Source: Podarcis vaucheri (Eukaryota). Taken from it: a DNA stretch of 64,000 nt. Position numbers and translations under genes: made by a program. Below are positions 8,153 through 62,059 of this stretch, one piece after another (positions within the stretch are counted from its first letter, which is position 1; each line of letters starts with the position of its first letter). The stretch is from assembly GCA_965113315.1 (NCBI GenBank), contig OZ220368.1. One strand, written 5' to 3'. The notes below the pieces were generated by a model, which did no database searches, was not told where the DNA came from, and saw only the letters and a program-made list of their open reading frames with translations.

Positions 8153-10047
8153 TGTCACGGTCCGGTTCACGGGCGATCGAAGTCCTGGCTGGGGATGTTG
8201 GGACCGGGGGCAAGATAGCGGGGTGGGAGCAGGAACGGGAGTCCAGAAGACAGGAGTCAGAAAACCTAGATTCCGAGGGTTAGAGATCCGGGAGTCAAGA
8301 AGCCAAGGGTCCAACGTTCAGGAAGCAAGGAGTCATGAAGTCAAGGGTCTGAGAGTCAAGGAGTCAAACGCAGAAAGGCAGGAAACGTGCTGTTGTGGCA
8401 AAGAGCTGAAGGGAAAATGCTGACCTTATATCCCTTCCCTGCTCTTGCCACCAGGTGTTGTGAGTTACCAATTGGCCTCACCTGTGTGGCTGCGCCTTGC
8501 CTCTTCAGAACAAACTTAGGAAGGCCCCAGTCCTGCAGAGTCCTATTGTCACAGGGCCTGGCTCTTGCACGCACATCTGACAGTACTCCCCCCCATAGGA
8601 AAATGGGGTTCCATCCCTGGTCATGGCCCAAGCTTGTCTGGGAACCTCCGATGGAAGGCCCGTACTTTGGTGGGCGTGTGCATGAAGTCGGCCGGCTCCC
8701 ACAATCGTTCCTCTGGCCCGTAGCCCACCCAGTCAATTAGACAGTAGAGCTTGCCACGGAGCCATTTCGAGTCCAGAATCTGGGCAACCTGGAACTCATC
8801 ATGGCCGTCAACGTGGACTGGCGGTGGGGCAATGCTTCAGCTGGGATACGTGAAACACTGGGTGGATCTTCAGGGAGGGGGGAAGCTCCAACTTGTAGGC
8901 GACTGGATTGATCTGCTGCAGGGTGGTGAATGGTCCCTGGTCCACCTTAGCCGACGGACGTCCAGTGCGGTGGTGCTCCAATGACAGTCGGACCTTATCC
9001 CCAACCTGGAACGCAGGCCCCTGCTGGCGCGGTCGATCCGCTTGCGCCTTATAATCTGCCTTGGCTCTCGCTAGGTGCCATATCAGGTCAGCTTGTGTTT
9101 CCTGGATGTGGGAGACCCGATTGGCGGAAGGCACAAGAGATGCCGCCGGTAGTTAGCGTAGAAAGGGCTCTGTCCCGTGGAGGCATGGCAGGTGTTGTTA
9201 TAGGCAAACTCAGCCAGTGGCAGAAGGTCCACCCAATCATCCTGATGGTAGCTCAGGAACCAGTGGAGATATTGCTCCAGGACTTGATTAACCCTCTCCG
9301 TCTGGCCATGTGTTTGAGGGTGGTATGCGGAAGAGAGGCGCCTCTCAATACTCAGTCCCTTTAGGAAGGCCGCCCAGAACCGGGACATGAACTGGGGACC
9401 CCTATCGGAGATCACCGCATCCGGGAGCCCATGTAGCCGGAACATGGGTTCAAGAAACAAGTGGGCTGTCTGTTGCGCTGTGGGGAAGCTTCGAGCTGGG
9501 ATGAAGTGTGCCATCTTGGTGAGTGAATCCACCACCACCAGAATGACCAACTGTCCTTTGGACACAGGGAGGTCCACGATGAAGTCCATAGAAAGTGTTG
9601 ACCATGGCCTGTGGGGGAGGGGGTAATGGCTGGAGGAGCCCCAAGGGTCTCTGCCGTGGCACCTTGGTCCAATCAAAAGTCTCACAGGACCGCACATACT
9701 TCTTAATGTCCGCCCAAACCCCTGGCTACCAGAAAGCTCAGGCCAATAGCTGCAGTGTCTTCGCGTATCCCCCATGTCCGGCAGTTCACGTATCATGGCA
9801 CTGCTCAAGGACCTGGGTCCGGAGCAGCCCCTCTGGAATTTAGAGGCAGCTGCGATGATACACACACCCATCCCGGACATCAAGCGGCGCACCCCCCAGT
9901 CCCAAAGGCACCGGGCTAGTATCCAACCAGGCCTTGGTGAACAGTTCCTGTCGCTGTGCCTTGCCTCTTCAGAACAAACTTAGGAAGGCTCCAGTCCTGC
10001 AGAGTCCTATTGGTCACAGGGCCTGGCTCCTGCACGCACACCTGACA
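8153..10047 (-). mobile_element. Internally deleted Ty3/Gypsy chromovirus LTR retrotransposon
   Basis: TG...CA termini; perfect 5-bp TSD GTATT (8148-8152 / 10048-10052); complete 3' LTR 8153-8582; polypurine tract ~8583-8599; 5' LTR remnant 9953-10047 (4 substitutions + 1 indel vs the 3' LTR); integrase remnants between them. Confidence 0.93.
8621..9950 (-). pseudogene. Degenerate Gypsy integrase (HHCC, DDE core, GPY/F motif) plus chromodomain
   Basis: Core PWSTLSMDFIVDLP...ISDRGPQF...YHPQTHGQTERVNQ; GPY/F segment GPFTTLQQINPVAYKLELP..IHPVFHVSQLK; chromodomain at 8621-8827; stops and frameshifts in the HHCC region and between segments. Confidence 0.9.
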
Positions 10048-11053
10048 GTATTAGCCTGTTTTAGCATGTCCTGCCTGTGTTAAAGTGCTTGGGAAGCAGC
10101 AATGGTGCCACACTCATTATATGAGAATTGACCCTTGGTCAGGTCTCAATTCAGCATGAGAATAATAGAGCATTTGGAAGGGCTGGGAATATATTTTTCC
10201 TAGTGCACATGTCTCCATTCACATGTTTCACAAACACATGCTCCCTATGGCAACCAATGCCTGAGGCCTGGGTCAGTAGCTTACACTTCATTATAGTGGC
10301 AGGGCTAGATGGAGGGGGGCTACTGTTGCTGTATAAGAGTGTTTTTAGGGATATGGCAGGGTGAAATGGAGGCCCAGATGTAGCAGTGAAATGTTTGAAT
10401 ACAAAAGGCTTGGGCAGAGTGATAGCTAGGAGATGGAGAGAAAAGGAAGTAATAAAACACTAATAATTCATACCTTCCAACATCACTCAGATGAAAATCA
10501 GGACATTTTCATCTGAGGAATGCAAGGTGTTTCTGACTGGGGGGAAAGGGTGGTGGAGGAAATAGGTGCACACTTACTCAGTACATGCTCAGAGGCACTA
10601 CTGCCATCTCTTCATTACCTCACACATAACCGGATGAGACCCTAGCACTAGGCATCAGCCCTCGTTCCCTTTCCCTCTGCCCTCTTATCCATCTTGCTAG
10701 TTGCTCCGGACTCAACCATTGCTGTTGCCAGCTCCAATCTGCACTGCAGCCCTTTTAATCCCTGCCCCCCCCCTCTCTCAAAGGTGCCCTGGTGAATGAC
10801 ATCATCAGGCCAGACCATCAAACTTGCAGATCACCAAACTGCGAGGGGAAGAGAGGCAAAATCCATGCAGATCTGATCCAAAGAACCAACCTTGGAGAGT
10901 CCAATCCACTGCATGGATGGCAGGTAAGTCTCAGGCCCTGCGTGGCCTCTGCGATCTGCTGTTGCCACTCTCACTCACTGCCAGGGCAGCACTGTGAGAG
11001 GGGAACAAAGCCTTGAAATTGGGACACCCAATTTCAAGTCAGAAGATTGACCT

Positions 11054-11204
11054 CATGGGCGTAGCTAGGATTTTTGTTAGGGGGGACATGCCTTTTGTTG
11101 GGGGGGCAGAACCTCAGTTTGCTATGTATTTTTATTGAGTTTTATTGATTTAAGGGGGGCAGTTGCCCCTCCCTGCCCCCTGCACCCCCTTGCCTATGCC
11201 CATG
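11054..11204. mobile_element. hAT-type MITE
   Basis: TIRs CATGGGCGTAG / CTATGCCCATG; no clear TSD. Confidence 0.65.
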
Positions 11205-11959
11205 CTTCATCCATCAAAATTTAGGAAATATTCCCTGAGAAAATTACACATTATTTTAGCTCACAGAACAATCACAAAAAGCCATCTCTGGCTCTCCTCA
11301 TTACTCCAAATATTTCCTCTACAAAAGGAGATATCTTGGAGAACACTCCCCCAATAGTTCTTTCGCTTTCAAATCTTGCCTTAAGGGCAAATTTATGTAT
11401 GAATAGGGTGGGCCAGTGACCTAGATGCAAGAACTAAAGTATTTACCATCTCAAAAGAATGGTCAGACTGCCCAGGTAATGCAATCAGTAAAACATTATC
11501 AGGTATTCTGGCAGGCAGAAGAGAAGCCTCATACTCCTATTTCTGTTGGAGACCACTTTACAGATGCAGAATGGTGGACTTTGGTTCCCAAGGCAGTAGA
11601 AGATTCAGATGTTTTAAGGACCGCAGGGCCAAATACAAAAATCAGGAGGTTGTGCAACTGAATGCTTTGCCAATTTGTGGTTATCAGTAAGCTACAGTTT
11701 TTCCTCAGATCTGAAAAGAGGACAAAATATCAGTTAACTGGTTTAACTTGACCAGCGCTCTACCCCTGCCCAGATAAATGTACAACTTCCAATTTTTAAA
11801 CAAGGGTTGCCCCAGGGCGTGCATAAAATGTCATTGTTAATCTGTCCCAAGACTTTTCATGCAGCTAAGATGAACAGTAGGGTGCCAGTCCTCCCTGGCT
11901 GTGCTTAGATCTGAGGACACCTTAGTAAGAGAGCACATAAAAAGATTTAAAATGGCAAA

Positions 11960-12350
11960 TCCCTGTAGCAATTGAGTGCCCACCAACAGGTGTACTCTAT
12001 GGTGCAGTTCCAGATAAGGAAATACAACACCAATACCCCCGCTTCATCTGTTGGTAACTGCATTATTTGGAGGGATAGCTGAGGGGAGGAAGCCATTGAG
12101 AACCTTACAAAATATTGATTCATTTAGAATATTGTTATGTGAAAAGTACTGAGAAATTCCTCTCAAGACATACATAAAATGGGGGAGCACTTTCATTCTG
12201 AGCACTTTCAATCTTGCCCACTTAAGTGATCCATTACACATACTGATTATTGTGGGATTATTCCCATATACTGCAGTAACTCTGGATACTGGGTGGGAGT
12301 ACCATAACTTCCCCTGATGGGAGTATATTTAGCTTGATTTGTTTCTGATT
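11960..12350 (-). mobile_element. Possible ancient L1-clade ORF2 fragment
   Basis: Minus-strand peptide SLKWARLKVLRMKVLPHFMYVLR resembles the post-RT L1 segment (GRI..KM.VLP.F.Y). Heavily decayed; boundaries approximate. Confidence 0.4.
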
Positions 12351-13839
12351 ACCTGCACTAGTGCTGTGCGCTCAGAGTGAAGTTGATATAAGCACATATT
12401 TGTGGGGCATGAGCAAAACTCCAGTTGAACTGAACTTCTGATAACATCTTTGAACTTGCTTCAATTTGCTGACTTGCTTTTTAGTGACATCAGCCTCCCC
12501 TGGTTTGGTAATCCAAGGAGTACTTTACCCTCCCATCTTTCTCGTGAAATCCCACACATTTGTCCTCACTTTATATATATATATATAAAAGCCTTAGCTC
12601 ATGGAGCCTTTGCTCTAGCCATGACCCCAGTGAATAAAGTGAAGGCAATCTTAGAAGAAAGGATGGGATAGGATAGTGCTTTATTATTTAGTGTTGTGAG
12701 GTTCATTTATTGCTGCTGTCAGAGCAGAACTGCAGACCGGTGGCAAGTGAATTTATCACAGAAATGGTATTCAGGGGTGGTAGCTGCTAAATACTTCAGA
12801 TCAAGTAGAACATCTGTGTTGAATTCAGAAAATGTATTCCTAACACTTTTAGGTCACTGCATCCAAAATGGTGGTAGTGAGCTTGAAATCTGGCATGTTC
12901 ATTAGACTTTCTTGTGGTTCACACCATTTATTGTTCATTACATTAATGTATGCCCCACTCTTCCTCTCATCAATAGTTTTTTTAGACAGGCTGTCATTGT
13001 GCACTGAGTAAATAGAGGAGAAAGGCTTGAAATGGATTCAGCTAACCAGCAGTGGATCTTCTCATTCTGACCTGATCTCTCCAGGATGGGCTATTCTCTT
13101 ACCATTTTGCTATCTCGTTTGGAATTGCTATCTGATTGAAGAACAGTCATTTATAGATAAGACTAGTGGTAGATAGAAGAGTTTCAGTTTCATGGCTGGA
13201 TAGTGGATTTTCACCACCCCCAAGCAATTTTCTACTTGCCAAAAATAATTAGCATGTTAGTACTCTGCTCCTGTACTAAGCCAGTCATTAAAGCAACAGA
13301 AGAAGGATGTATGTACAGCTTTTCTGGAAGCATTGGTGGCTTGCCCTGCATAAAGAATCCAGAGAACCATAGTATACTTCATGACTAAAAACAAGCATTT
13401 TGAAAATAGGCCCCAAGACTGGGTCCATTATTTTCTCTACACATTTCAATTTATTTACTTACTTATTTATCTGTGTTCCTTTCAGGTGTATGCAAAATAT
13501 GAAAATGAAAGGAAATTGTTCAGACCTGGGGAGTAATAAGCTTATTCTAATTATTCTCCCTGCATCTGGGCAGAACAAAATCTAGCATCCACTGAGCCCC
13601 ACTGGGACCAATTTGCAGGTGAGGTAAAATGCCTCCTCTCACAGCTGCTTGCCTTACCTGAGCAGACATAAAGTGGGAATTAGCAAAAAATGGAGAACAT
13701 CTAAACTCCTGAGAAATAAGAAGTAGACATATGGAATATGGAAACTAAACTTGGTTATCAAGAGCTCAGAGTTACTTATTTTGTCACCAAATCTCATCTT
13801 CCTCAGTTTAATTCTACCAGATAGGCAGTCTGGTATCCT

Positions 13840-14585
13840 GTTGTTGTTGTTTAGTCGTTTAGTCGTGTCCGACTCTTCGTGACCCCATGGACCAGAGCAC
13901 GCCAGGCACTCCTGTCTTCCACTGCCTCCCGCAGTTTGGTCAGACTCATATTTGTAGCTTCGAGAACACTGTCTAACCATCTCATCCTCTGCCATCCCCT
14001 TCTCCTTGTGCCCTCCATCTTTCCCAACATCAGGGTCTTTTCCAGGGAGTCTTCTCTTCTCATGAGGTGGCCAAAGTATTGGAGCCTCAGCTTCACGATC
14101 CGTCCTTCCATTGAGCACTCAGGGCTGATTTCCTTAAGAATGGATACGTTTTATCTTCTTGCAGTCCATGGGACTCTCAAGAGTCTCCTCCAGCACCATA
14201 ATTCAAAAGCATCAATTCTTTGGCGATCAGCCTTCTTTATGGTCCAGCTCTCACTTCCATACATCACTACTGGGAAAACCATGGCTTTTACTTTGTTGGC
14301 AAGGTGATGTCTCTGCTTTTTAAGGTGTTGTCTAGGTTTGCCATCGCCTTTCTCCCAAGGAGCAGGTGTCTTTTAATTTCGTGACTGCTGTCACCATCTG
14401 CAGTGATCATGGAGCCCAAGAAAGTAAAATCTCTCACTGCCTCCATTTCTTCCCCTTCTATTTGCCAGGAGGTGATGGGCCCAGTGGCCATGATCTTTGT
14501 TTTTTTGATGTTGAGCTTCAGACCATATTTTGTGCTCTCCTCCTTCACCCTCATTAAAAGGTTCTTTAATTACTCCTCACTTTCT
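13840..14585 (-). mobile_element. BovB (RTE) LINE, 5'-truncated
   Basis: RT C-terminal peptides (GLKLNIKKTKIMA..FTFLGS; LQYFGHLMRREDSLEKTLMLGK); (CAA)n tail; 12-bp TSD GTCTGGTATCCT (13828-13839 / 14586-14597); small deletion/frameshift near 14290. Confidence 0.95.
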
Positions 14586-56279: not shown

Positions 56280-56800
56280 TCTGAGATCAATTCAGTGTAC
56301 TATCACTGACCTATTAAGTCCTGCATGACTCAGGACTCCTGAAGGAGACCACTTCCAGTACTGTCTCGCCTAGTTGTTAAGATGTGAACAAAAGTCCCCT
56401 TTTGATGTCCCACATCAAGGGTCAGTGCCCATGGAGTTATCCTTTTTGCATCAGCTCAAAACCTTTTTGTTTTCACAAACATTTTTAAGTGTTGGGATTT
56501 TATGGAATTATCCCCAGGACTTGGTTTTGTAAATTTTAATTTCTGCTACTCTCATGTATTATTTTGTATTGTACCTCGAGGACCACCTCTCCTCATATCA
56601 ACCAACCTGAACCCTGTAATCATCATCTGAGGCCCTTCTTCATTCCTTTTCTCCCAGGCATTTGGCTAATTAGACAATCTATGACCTTTTAAACTGTTTG
56701 TGTGGGTGGTTTTTGTTTGTTACTATAGTATGTATTTTTGTAGTTTTATATTGTAAACCGCCTTGTGATCCTTGGATGAAGGGTGGTATATAATAATAAT
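56280..56800 (+). mobile_element. Decayed L2-like LINE 3' fragments
   Basis: Ends ttttatattgtaaaccgccttgtgatccttggatgaagggtggtatataataataat, an L2-type tail. Confidence 0.55.
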
Positions 56801-57423
56801 CATAATCATAATGATGATGTCATTGTTTTTATACCTGCATAACCTGAACTGGGTTTAAGAATGACTGAATGCCTAAATAAATACATTTGGGTTTAAGGCA
56901 TTCCAATAAGGTGCTGCCTGCGAAACAGTGGCTGAGGAGCATATGGAGGAGATGAGCAAGTCCTAGCTTGTTGGACTACATTTGGATAGAGAACACTTCC
57001 TTTTCATTTTGGAGGAGATGCTGTATGGCCTCCACATGATATAAGTGCATCCTTTGCATCTGCAGCCAGGCCTTGCTTCCCTAAGTTGGGGTCCTATAAC
57101 ATACCAATGAAAGAGCTGCTGCAGCCTCATGTGCTCAGTCAAGATTGCAATTTTGCTGGCTGATTTATGCATTTCATTGTTTGGAAAACTGTGACGTGTT
57201 AATCTCTCTTTCTTTCTTCACATGCAGGCTGGAGCATTGTATGTGAGTAGCACCAGAGACTAGTTTGTGGGGGACAGCCTGGCTCACTAGCAAGAGAAGG
57301 GTTAGCACTAAGTCTGTGGTGAGTGAGGTTGACCTTCATGACACTGAACAAAAAAGATGAGAAAGAAAGAGGCGGGGAAAAGATAGTGAGGAAGAAGAAA
57401 AAGGAGGAGGAGAGAAAACTAAC

Positions 57424-57456
57424 TTGAGATATTCGGGCAACTGGGGCCACTGGCAC
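57424..57456 (-). CDS. PTPRF: PTPRF 33-nt alternative mini-exon (G-ASGPSCPNIS-S; LASE-a-like)
   Basis: Minus strand reads ctaat...ttctgttctttcag|GTGCCAGTGGCCCCAGTTGCCCGAATATCTCAA|gttagt. Phase 1-1 and frame-preserving; resembles the mammalian 11-aa LAR juxtamembrane insert (..PSCPN.SS). Confidence 0.88.
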
Positions 57457-59435
57457 CTGAAAGAACAGAAATCCCATTAGCTGTTGCTGAGGGAAGAGTT
57501 AAAGATGCGACAGAGGAGGGTCAAAGGGCAGCACAAAAATCCCCAACACAACCTTCACATTCCTGTTTTTAGGGATGGGAATTGCAGCTTGATGCTTGCT
57601 ACACATGTGGCAGCATGGAGGGTGATGTATTAAGACAAGCACCAAGTACAACCAGGATTATTTCACAAAGAGGATTTCCCCACAACAGACATGATAGATG
57701 GCTTTGCTTGTTGGCCAGGAAACAGAGTTCCTATTCCCAGCACATGCTGCTTTCCAAGACCATGCTTCCCTCCTACATGAGACAGCAGCAGAGCCTTGGA
57801 ACCAAGGTGTAGTCAAAATTCACCCAATCGCTTAGTAGCGACATCACCCTGCCTGACCTGCCACAAGTCTGCAAAATGGAACATGAGAACAAAGGAGCTG
57901 ACAATTCACGCAAGAACCTGTGTCTGAAGTGGAAACTATTAAAGTGATAAGCTTAATATTTAATAACAGCAGCTTGATTAATTATGTACTGAGCAAGGCC
58001 TTTCCTGCCTCTACATTTGCCAGAAGGGATATCAACTATGAGACTGCTCAGGGTTTAGTTGCTGCTGTCTGGCCCACAGAAGGCATCCATCCATCACAGA
58101 AGAGGGTGAGGATAGGTGGAGGCAACTAAGTGTCTCAGACTGAAACAATAATACCAGAACTTTTTTTGTACACTGATTGTTCCCTACTGGGCACCTGAGA
58201 AGATAAAAGGGTGCAAAATCTCAAGCTAGCAGCTCAGCAAGTACGGTCACACCTGAGAATATGGGGGGGGGGTTGCGTATACACTATGAGGCTAACTCGC
58301 TTTCTTTTGTCAAGCTTCCCTTTTGTGCAACATCCCTTGTTAGCACATACAACTCTGCACCATGTCCATGCCTCTATCTTCTCTCTGTGACCCCTCTGGA
58401 CTAGACCTCTAACTCTCCTGTCATGTTGGACTCTGCAAACCATCTGGTGGAATAATGACTTTACACTAATAGGGTGGGTCGTGCTCCCAATTCTACAAGC
58501 TGTGTGCGCACAACCCACAAAAGCCCCCGTCCTCTGACCCATCTGCAAGGCAGTATGAGGTAAAGGACTCAAGCCTAGAGAGAGAGACAAGAGAGCAGCG
58601 CTGCACATAGTCACAGGGCACAACTTCCAATTCCCTTCCTGCAACTGCTTTCCCCCCAAAATCTATTATAGGAGGACAAATAGTTTTGAGGAAAAGGAAT
58701 ACAGGTCACATCTTGCTAGGTAGAGTCTGGGTGTACTGAGCTAGAAGCCCCCACTGACCGCTAACATCATTCAATAGCCTTCATGAATCCCACAATCTAA
58801 ATAAGGAAGGAATAGGTTGCTTCAACTCTAACACGATAGAATGAAACCACATCCTGCCTCAGATGAGGATGTGAGGCCCTTCACAAAGCAAGAAATCTAG
58901 GAAATAGACTCTGTTGAAGACAGATTGTTTTGCTGACACAGCTAAGCAGCATCTATTACAACTGCAACGTACCTTAAGAGTTGGAAGCACTGCAGGAGCT
59001 GAATCATGAACCTGCCTACCTGCTACTTGACAGTGGACCTACTGGCATGTTGGACTTTCCTTTTGCTGGCTAATTTTGAGACCATATCTGGAAAGCACGA
59101 TGTGGGCCAAAAAACTGAGTGTTATCTATGGAATATAAGATAAATCATGACAAGGGCTCCATGAGAGCCTGTTCTTTGTCACGCTATGCCTTCCAGCACC
59201 TTGTGATGCAGGTATGGTCAGGCTATTGAGCCAACAGGAAGCCTGTCATCCCCATTCTGACTGTTGCCAATGTCAGACATACACGTGAGCAACAGTGTAT
59301 TGAGCCACACTGGCCTCTGAACCTAGCCTGAGAAGGTGCACACAACACTGCAAAGGGAAGAAGAGGCTCTCTTATCACAGACCTCTGCCAGTAAAAGGAG
59401 CAGGGGCCTCTGTGGGGCCGTCAAGTGGTACCTAC

Positions 59436-59551
59436 CTGGTGTTTGGTAGTTGAGTCGCCTCATTTCAACAGGATCAGAGGAATGGGCCAGCAAGGAGTCC
59501 TTCAGGCCAATGGAATGCTCATCCTTGGCGGAGGGTGAATTGGCCCTTTTC
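59436..59551 (-). CDS. PTPRF: PTPRF juxtamembrane exon (KRANSPSAKDEHSIGLKDSLLAHSSDPVEMRRLNYQTP-G)
   Basis: 116 nt; tag acceptor, gtagg donor, phase 2 to 1. Confidence 0.96.
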
Positions 59552-61116
59552 CTAAAGGGAGAGAAGGCGCAGCTCAGAAGGTAGATCTGGGCATGGACCC
59601 AATGGCAGAGAGCTTCAAGATGACCCTGTAGCAAACTCAATAATGCACCTAGCTGTAAGGGGGACTGGTAACCCCCTCCCCAGAGCTTACAAAACCTCCA
59701 GCTCCACTTCCATCTTCCACACACCAGTGTTGGGAACTATTTCCTGTGGTGGATGAATATACTTAAGATTTTGCCAAGTATTAAAAAAAATTATTTAAAA
59801 TGTGAAGAGTTGTAATATAATAGGGTAAGGGCTCTTCAGGGTGAATTTTATTGGTCCATTAATACTTGTCTTGAGTGGCTGAAGGCCCCCCAGGCGTGTG
59901 TTAATGGAACAATAAAATACACTGTTGTCTCTTCCTGCTATATTTATGCCTGCAGCTCCACCACCCTAGGCTCTTATCCTAGTAGATTTCACTAGCTAAG
60001 CAGAGATGAACCTGCTCAGTGATTAAATGGGAGACATTTACAGGAAATTTTGGCATGACAAGAAGAGTTATCAGTGATGTCCAGTGGCTACCATTAAACC
60101 AAAAAACCTCATATGGTGCTGCCTCTTAAAGTTGCAATGTGTTTTCTGGGGTAACTAAGCCACGGGGAGGGGGTATTCAACAGAAACACCCCAGCCTGGT
60201 ATTAAGGAGCACTGTGCTGCAATCCTGCAGGCAATTCAGCAGAGAGGTGTGTGTATCTGTTGATCTTTCAAACACATCAGAAGCCCAAAGCACTTATGAT
60301 TAACCTGGAGACACTGTTGATAGCACCCTGCAAAGGATTTTTTTACTTTGCCTGACGGCACAACTCTATTTGTTAGGAGGGAGAAATTGCCACAATTAGC
60401 ATGGAGCTCTCTGTGCTGTGAGGGGAGAAAACAAAAGTTTGTTCAGCTGTATGCACATGCATGCATGAAGTGGGGAGTCATTTATAAAGCAGCCACCACA
60501 TTACAACATCTGAAATAAGAGCCCTGCATCAACTTGAATTTATCACCAAAGGGGACCATTGTTGAAATAAGCCTAAGACTTTGCTTTGGTTCCTGCCTCC
60601 TGCTGAAAGTCAGTGTCACTCTGTTGTAACAGCATTACTTCCAGATTTACTAAGAATCAGCTAGACACCAAAGTCAGCAAGCAGTGGGAGACCTTTGTAG
60701 GACACACACAGTGACACTGAAAAGGGAACAGCTCAGAGCAAGGCCTTATTAACTGGTTTATAGAGCATGCTGATTATGCCAAGGAACTAGAGTCAGCTCA
60801 TGGTAATGTCACATCCTTGATCAATATAGGGGGCAAATAACCCCACAAATCCTGGAACACCAAATGCACTGAAAAGGAATTTTCTAAAAATCTGTCACAC
60901 CTTACTTGTGAAGCCATTTATTTAAATATAACAGCAAGAGAAGGTTAAAGGAGTTTAGGACACCACAATGGCTAGGTAGGCAGAGCAATATCCAAAAGCC
61001 AGATTAGTCTGGATAGGAAGACTTATGATTACTGTTTTTAACAAGATGAAACAGTGGATGTGAAACAGACAAAGCAAAGGATTAGTAAGGGTGGGGGGAG
61101 GAGGGCAGATGTCTAC

Positions 61117-61128
61117 CTTTCTTGTTTG
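61117..61128 (-). CDS. PTPRF: PTPRF 12-nt alternative microexon (inserts SKQE after the TM helix)
   Basis: Minus strand reads polypyrimidine tract ...ttttttctatttctgctgtccctggatctag|CAAACAAGAAAG|gtagac. Phase 2-2 fits between the flanking exons, giving LLFK-SKQE-RKR. The position matches the SKPD/NKPD inserts of PTPRD/PTPRS. Confidence 0.8.
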
Positions 61129-61907
61129 CTAGATCCAGGGACAGCAGAAATAGAAAAAAAGAGGAAATCCAGGTTACAAAAAGGTACTAATTGTGCATGC
61201 AATAACCCAAAGTCACCTCCCCTCTTGGTGTTATTATGCACATTTAGTTGGAGAAAAATGATGACAGCTTCCCAGAGCAAAGATGGGAGAGTAAGCACTC
61301 CCTGTAACCAAATGAGCAGCTCCTGCTTCTTCTAACAGCCCAAGCACTTGACACCCATGTCCCAGATCATGGATCAGAACACCTATGACTAGGCTGAGGA
61401 CAAATCTCTGGAACAAAGGGTCCCTGTTACCACATGGAGGGTTCATTCTCGGAGCCAAGAAGACTTGGGGAAAAGCACCAGGCCTCTGAATAAACCAAGG
61501 GATGTAGGCATTTGTTGGTCAGAGCCTTTTACTTAATCTGAGGCATGGTGATACAGGTCATCACCCTAGAACCACTAAGCAGAAGCCATATCCTATGGCT
61601 TCACAGTTCATCTGGCACTGACACAGCCCCAGTTCACTTCCAGGATATACCTTCCCAGCACAAAATGAAATGCAGAAACCACTGAATGTGATCCCATGCT
61701 CCCCTTCCTAGGGCTTGCCTTACATAGCACTGTTTTGCAAGCTCCATTGAGAAACACCTTCAGGAAGGTTCAGACCACATCCCCCAGAAGAGACAGTGTC
61801 CTTGGATTTATCATATAGTTTGCTCACTGTAAATGTTCTTGCGCTTGGCACAATACTGCACCATGGACACCACCACATTGCACGGGCATAGGCAGGCGTG
61901 TGCTCAC

Positions 61908-62059
61908 CTTTTGAAGAGCAGGATAGCAATGACAATGATGATGATTAAGATGACAGCCAGGACAGGCCCCATCACCCACAGCATCTCTGGTTCATCCTGC
62001 TGTTTTGCTGAAACCTCCATCACAATCTCATCTGAGTAGGGGCTGGCTGCATACTTCTT
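61908..62059 (-). CDS. PTPRF: PTPRF transmembrane exon (KKYAASPYSDEIV...LWVMGPVLAVILIIIIVIAILLFK-R)
   Basis: 152 nt; cag acceptor, gtgag donor, phase 0 to 2; hydrophobic TM helix typical of LAR-family PTPs. Confidence 0.96.

Follow-up and report, generated by a model that had tools for sequence, protein, structure and literature searches.

A 12-nucleotide juxtamembrane cassette microexon of PTPRF in the lizard Podarcis vaucheri and its copies in two paralogous genes

Does the intron that follows the transmembrane-helix exon of PTPRF in Podarcis vaucheri contain a genuine microexon and, if so, is it a neural switch of the SRRM4-driven kind? An earlier note on the window (the whole 64,000-nucleotide stretch of DNA analysed) had proposed a 12-nt exon at this site, encoding SKQE and bearing the signature of neural microexons. 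The PTPRF features of the window described here lie on the minus strand. The host gene is PTPRF (LAR): the peptide of the transmembrane-helix exon (61908..62059) shares 100% of its residues with named squamate PTPRF proteins but only 57–58% with two paralogs of this genome, and beyond the transmembrane and juxtamembrane exons the window continues with the tandem PTP exons in their proper order. The transmembrane exon ends in phase 2, with RNA joints at 61907/61908, and the next constitutive exon (59436..59551; sequence and RNA joints) encodes RKR...YQTPG. Between them, separated from its neighbours by introns of 779 and 1565 nt, lies the 12-nt exon (61117..61128; sequence, the contig of RNA run X6 and annotated proteins), preceded by the 3' splice-site AG (61129..61130; sequence and the X6 contig) and followed by a weak 5' splice site (61111..61116, GT 61116-61115). 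Re-checking of the letters reproduced every exon and splice-site coordinate originally proposed, as well as the phase 2-2 insertion that converts LLFK-RKR to LLFK-SKQE-RKR, from transmembrane exon 62059-61908 to exon 59551-59436, without a frameshift. The size (within 3–27 nt), the AG/GT ends and the preserved frame are those of a cassette microexon.

A scan of the minus strand of the window for the pattern YAG-(3n nt, 3–30, ending in G)-GTR gave 176 candidates, four of which combined a pyrimidine fraction of at least 0.7 with a lack of AG over the preceding 40 nt. One of these four also has a TGC at -22..-8, and this single bearer of the complete acceptor signature is 61128-61117. Elsewhere in the window, a high-copy repeat element occupies approximately 56570-56830, in the intron before exon 55168, and open frames near 13850-14370 and 8800-9730 resemble retroelement pieces (putative repeats, region 8800-14400).

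RNA evidence comes from eight examined runs out of 24 listed, none of which has a tissue label or is on record as RNA. The exon is included in one of the eight (X6) and skipped in seven. X6 is a contig set presumed to be RNA and labelled with another organism (C) than most runs; in its contig, precisely the 12 nt of the microexon (ten inserted letters plus two fitting either side) stand between 61908 and 59551, identifying the exon as a genuine spliced microexon. The contigs of X1, X2 and X4 skip it, and the raw-read runs X21–X24 have only the skipping joint (24, 26, 3 and 2 reads), with no inclusion joint in these four tissue-unlabelled runs (listing at 3 reads; 6–12% of each run covered), which are uninformative about neural inclusion. 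Included and skipped RNA forms both exist and, the assembled path of X6 being the inclusion form, inclusion in some lizard tissue can be high.

The next intron holds a second cassette exon, of 33 nt and phase 1 (57424..57456; RNA joints and annotated proteins), which by its position is presumably of the meD/LASE-a type. This widely annotated exon is included together with the microexon in X6, where the joint into it has a depth of 34.6, equal to that of the microexon joint; the remaining runs that span it skip it, three of X21–X24 listing the skip of 57456-57424. A 30-nt candidate at 57486 was dropped, as the 33-nt exon begins at 57456, where the RNA joins. In run X2, unspliced contigs cover 57226-59464 and 59524-60088 at depths of 26–32, compared with 27 for the spliced contig, which may reflect either intron retention next to both cassette exons or a DNA component of this run.

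The 12-nt exon is already known, since gene records of human, birds and lizards contain it. Annotated PTPRF proteins with SKQE come from lizards, turtles, crocodilians, birds and mammals, and human isoform 4 (RefSeq NP_001316067.1) has the identical peptide in the identical place, differing only by species. A first protein search returned SKQE in eight of the best 120 of 3395 matches (lacking in 110, unreadable in two). A search with the SKQE form, enriched by construction, returned it in all 120 of the best 120 of 1725 matches; the proteins listed span birds, crocodilians, turtles, Anolis and 40 mammalian entries, human isoform 4 among them, which settles the question of mammalian retention left open in the earlier note, and 110 of the 120 also have the 33-nt exon. 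Within a lacertid-rich cluster, two of 15 listed members contain SKQE, both from Lacerta agilis. Eleven of 75 short proteins span the end of the transmembrane helix: two teleost predictions (goodeid fish) have NKQE, one unnamed protein SKPD, one bat PTPRS NKPD and one a different insert, and six skip the exon. The exon is thus deeply conserved, with SKQE in amniotes and NKQE in teleosts at the protein level, in addition to the mouse exon sequence; the mouse–zebrafish table of PMC7821500 holds no match for the mouse exon, although the goodeid proteins have NKQE. The expectation that annotation would easily miss the exon holds for mouse GENCODE and for the 110 best-listed proteins that lack it, but not for human RefSeq or for the Lacerta agilis and Anolis models. 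Three of eight Lacerta agilis isoforms (P0123, P0127 and P0133) have a six-residue insert in the ectodomain stalk, which may stem from alternative splice-site use ahead of the transmembrane exon of the window.

The two paralogs carry corresponding exons, encoding N-KPD in the PTPRS-like gene (C40:5037059) and S-KPD in the PTPRD-like gene (C39:21992685), in accordance with the earlier note. Each occupies the corresponding intron, is 12 nt long and in phase 2, with 10/12 (PTPRS) and 8/12 (PTPRD) nucleotides identical to the PTPRF copy and a TGC at -15 and -18, respectively, compared with -18 in PTPRF. Because all three paralogs share the intron, length and phase of the exon, it appears to be older than the duplications that produced PTPRF, PTPRD and PTPRS, in agreement with the LAR-family ancestry first suggested for it. 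In the intron of the PTPRD-like gene expected to hold meD, there are two small AG-GT candidates (C39:21986983 and C39:21980761), one with a stop in the frame tried. The donors of the three microexons in the lizard genome match the consensus at 5/9 (PTPRF), 7/9 (PTPRD) and 8/9 (PTPRS) positions, the PTPRF value being the lowest of six donors scored by this crude match count. For comparison with mouse, we take two rows of a published exon table to be Ptprd and Ptprs, from a sequence match and their location. The donor ranking, a crude count in the lizard genome alone, parallels the mouse inclusion classes in the available part of that table (PMC7821500), in which Ptprf is Excluded, the Ptprd-like copy Neuronal with a 15-nt tandem-acceptor form and the Ptprs-like copy Included. 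The lizard PTPRD microexon (G000:C39:21992688-21992674) likewise has a tandem acceptor, with forms of 12 and 15 nt, the longer of which is identical to the mouse 15-nt form.

Around the PTPRF microexon, the acceptor side resembles the SRRM microexon anatomy of a UGC between the pyrimidine tract and the AG and a long AG-free zone (10.1101/2024.09.17.613571, available part). The pyrimidine tract (61131..61168, 81% C/T), with a TGC at 61146-61144 (-18), lies within an AG-free zone of 58 nt, both as in SRRM3/4-dependent microexons. A TGCATG of putative RBFOX type lies further upstream (61196..61201, position -73), and two ACTAAT motifs with a putative QKI role lie downstream, at 61081..61086 (+31) and 61003..61008 (+109). 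The TGC, the TGCATG and the first ACTAAT are where the earlier note had put them, the second ACTAAT is absent from its list and its downstream YCAY motifs, putative NOVA sites, amount to five per 100 nt against 1.9 expected. The branch-like GTAAC that it described does lie at 61173..61177, but as a branch point it is tentative because it departs from the YTNAY consensus and no YTNAY occurs in the 160 nt upstream of the microexon. At rates from window positions 64000-25600, the chance probabilities are 0.30 for a TGC within 15 nt, 0.08 for a TGCATG within 200 nt and 0.02 for an ACTAAY within 100 nt; taken singly, these flanking motifs are modest, weaker evidence.

The proposal that this is a regular SRRM3/4-driven neural microexon with high inclusion in neurons draws on this acceptor and on the company that the exon keeps. 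Human isoform 4 combines SKQE with meA, meB, meC and the 33-nt exon, the mouse PTPRD paralog is Neuronal, as noted above, and in the accessible supplements of PMC7935315 SRRM4 raises the PSI of a 12-nt PTPRD exon, assigned to this site from the order of exons, from 4 to 96. The 12-nt PTPRF exon itself was detected, if our identification of it is correct, in a human GTEx discovery covering brain, muscle and nerve (PMC4317164, available files) and probably in adult mouse brain (PMC10883964, available text). Against this stand the inclusion classes of the PTPRF exon in mammals. The mouse ortholog (chr4:118221570-118221582), which is identical to the lizard exon at 11/12 nt, with vertebrate conservation scored at 4.16 on average, is entered in the available part of PMC7821500 as 'Missing in GENCODE' and in cluster Excluded E1, that is, consistently excluded with no brain, skeletal-muscle or heart difference in mostly embryonic samples, while the 18-nt and 27-nt Ptprf exons are classed as Neuronal. 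In the available files of PMC4317164, the human exon (hg19 chr1:44073994-44074006, a position deduced from its distance to meC) sits in what appears to be the novel-exon list, and its coordinates are missing from the apparent list of 145 brain-specific exons, file and exon identities being our assignments. The 314-exon SRRM4 list of PMC7935315 (dPSI>=25) includes the 27-nt PTPRF exon and the 12-nt PTPRD exon and, in the 12 of 19 supplements covered, not the 12-nt PTPRF exon, for which a weaker response is possible. The response to SRRM4 correlates strongly with 5' splice-site strength (10.1101/2024.09.17.613571, available part), and the PTPRF donor, at 5/9 on a crude score, is not the strong 5' splice site of SRRM3/4-dependent neural microexons. 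With this donor, and with none of three mammalian data sets classing the PTPRF copy as neural or SRRM4-driven, mammalian data do not support calling this copy a neural switch, though the label may yet apply in lizards, and we consider the original proposal rather unlikely.

QKI binding downstream of an exon promotes its inclusion, and RBFOX binding upstream represses it. Inclusion that depends mainly on QKI, whether in muscle, heart or glia, and is repressed through the upstream RBFOX site would suit the two ACTAAT motifs (0.02 per 100 nt expected) and the neuromuscular preference of rat LAR splicing reported in the available text of PMC2120354, but neither paralog copy has an ACTAAY within 200 nt downstream and the mouse ortholog lacks the muscle and heart differences that such regulation would predict, albeit in mostly embryonic samples (PMC7821500, available part), making this a quite improbable account. 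That the exon is vestigial in PTPRF, functionless and included at noise level, we regard as highly improbable, since the skipping in seven of eight runs and the consistent exclusion in mouse (PMC7821500, available part) have to be set against a peptide invariant in amniotes and kept in teleosts, a mouse exon differing by 1/12 nt with the conservation score of 4.16 given there, and the assembled inclusion path of X6.

The reading that we favour, with a probability of about 0.65, is that of a vertebrate-conserved cassette microexon which is mostly skipped, a low-sensitivity, weak-donor version of the ancestral LAR microexon that inserts a four-residue spacer. Its acceptor would retain the neural-microexon anatomy of a distant pyrimidine tract, a UGC and a long AG-free zone, while the weak 5' splice site, likely the cause of the usual skipping, would keep inclusion low and make exon definition depend on added help. 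The likeliest helper would be SRRM3/4 acting at the UGC, the alternative being QKI at the two downstream ACTAAT motifs. Inclusion would then be confined to some cell types, probably SRRM3/4-high neurons or neuromuscular cells, along with the 33-nt exon.

At the protein level, inclusion shifts RKR by four residues, so that the basic cluster is moved away from the membrane as the earlier note had supposed. The insertion leaves the net charge unchanged, lowers the charge of the first four cytoplasmic residues from +4 to +2 and removes the match to K(K/R)x(K/R) that KRKR forms in PTPRF and PTPRD. This motif is a nuclear-import consensus. SKQE may act as a charge-neutral spacer: by interrupting KRKR close to the membrane, it would set RKR and the phosphatase domains approximately one helical turn further away from the bilayer and so finely adjust how the protein contacts the membrane, the geometry of its dimers or its processing by γ-secretase; γ-secretase frees a PTPRF fragment able to enter the nucleus (PMC8711739, available part). 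A spacer fits because the first residue varies between S and N across the copies while K-[QP]-[ED] persists; against it, the amniote-wide invariance of SKQE could reflect sequence-specific binding instead. A CK2-like S-x-x-E site was discarded as the conserved function, the first residue being N in PTPRS and in teleost PTPRF.

The published descriptions of LAR exons overlap with these observations. Rat LAR has two juxtamembrane cassette exons spliced preferentially in neuromuscular tissue (PMC2120354, 1995, available text), resembling the 12- and 33-nt cassettes of the window. Because 'skqe' occurs twice in that text, in which 'lase-b' occurs 44 times, the SKQE exon is probably LASE-b, an identification that rests on these counts. 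A 'previously unrecognized' 15/12-bp Ptprd/Ptprf microexon found in adult mouse brain is set between FN8 and the transmembrane helix in the available part of PMC10883964, in contrast to the cytoplasmic lizard exon; among the annotated isoforms of four species (38 proteins), the FN8–transmembrane stretch has no four-residue variation, and the 15/12-bp exon is likely to be the juxtamembrane one. No matches for the 12-nt exon occurred in the peer-review file of that paper. The mini-exons meA–meD of the LAR-RPTPs are likewise short and frame-keeping, in the same genes, meB also being 12 nt; meA and meB lie within the Ig domains (Ig2 and the Ig2–Ig3 linker), meC within FN5 and meD near D1 (PMC8711739, available part). 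The microexon, placed after the transmembrane helix, cannot be meA, meB or meC and is also distinct from the 33-nt exon. The zebrafish ptprfa/b deletions in the available part of PMC12626420 concern the 18-nt meA exon and hence not the SKQE exon. More than one Ptprf microexon was deleted in PMC12868881, with a phenotype for 'A' in the available part, and these deletions may bear on the function of the SKQE exon. The exon was not identified in the available parts of PMC12868881, PMC12626420 and PMC13281805, and a search of the open-licence literature found no functional study of it.

As a discovery the exon is of small value, since curated records of human PTPRF contain it and the 1995 paper very probably describes it. 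The usual meA–meD scheme nevertheless omits it, and it was probably reported again in 2024 as new and extracellular, though it is cytoplasmic (PMC10883964, available part). The three paralogous copies constitute a natural experiment relating splice-site strength to microexon regulation. They suggest a broader, admittedly unlikely proposal in which an ancestral microexon was retuned by donor strength (with inclusion close to constitutive in PTPRS, switched by SRRM4 in PTPRD and rare in PTPRF) and in which, jointly, inclusion in PTPRF and PTPRD destroys a nuclear-import or stop-transfer motif through the loss of KRKR. If true, splicing would set the fate of the phosphatase fragment released by γ-secretase.
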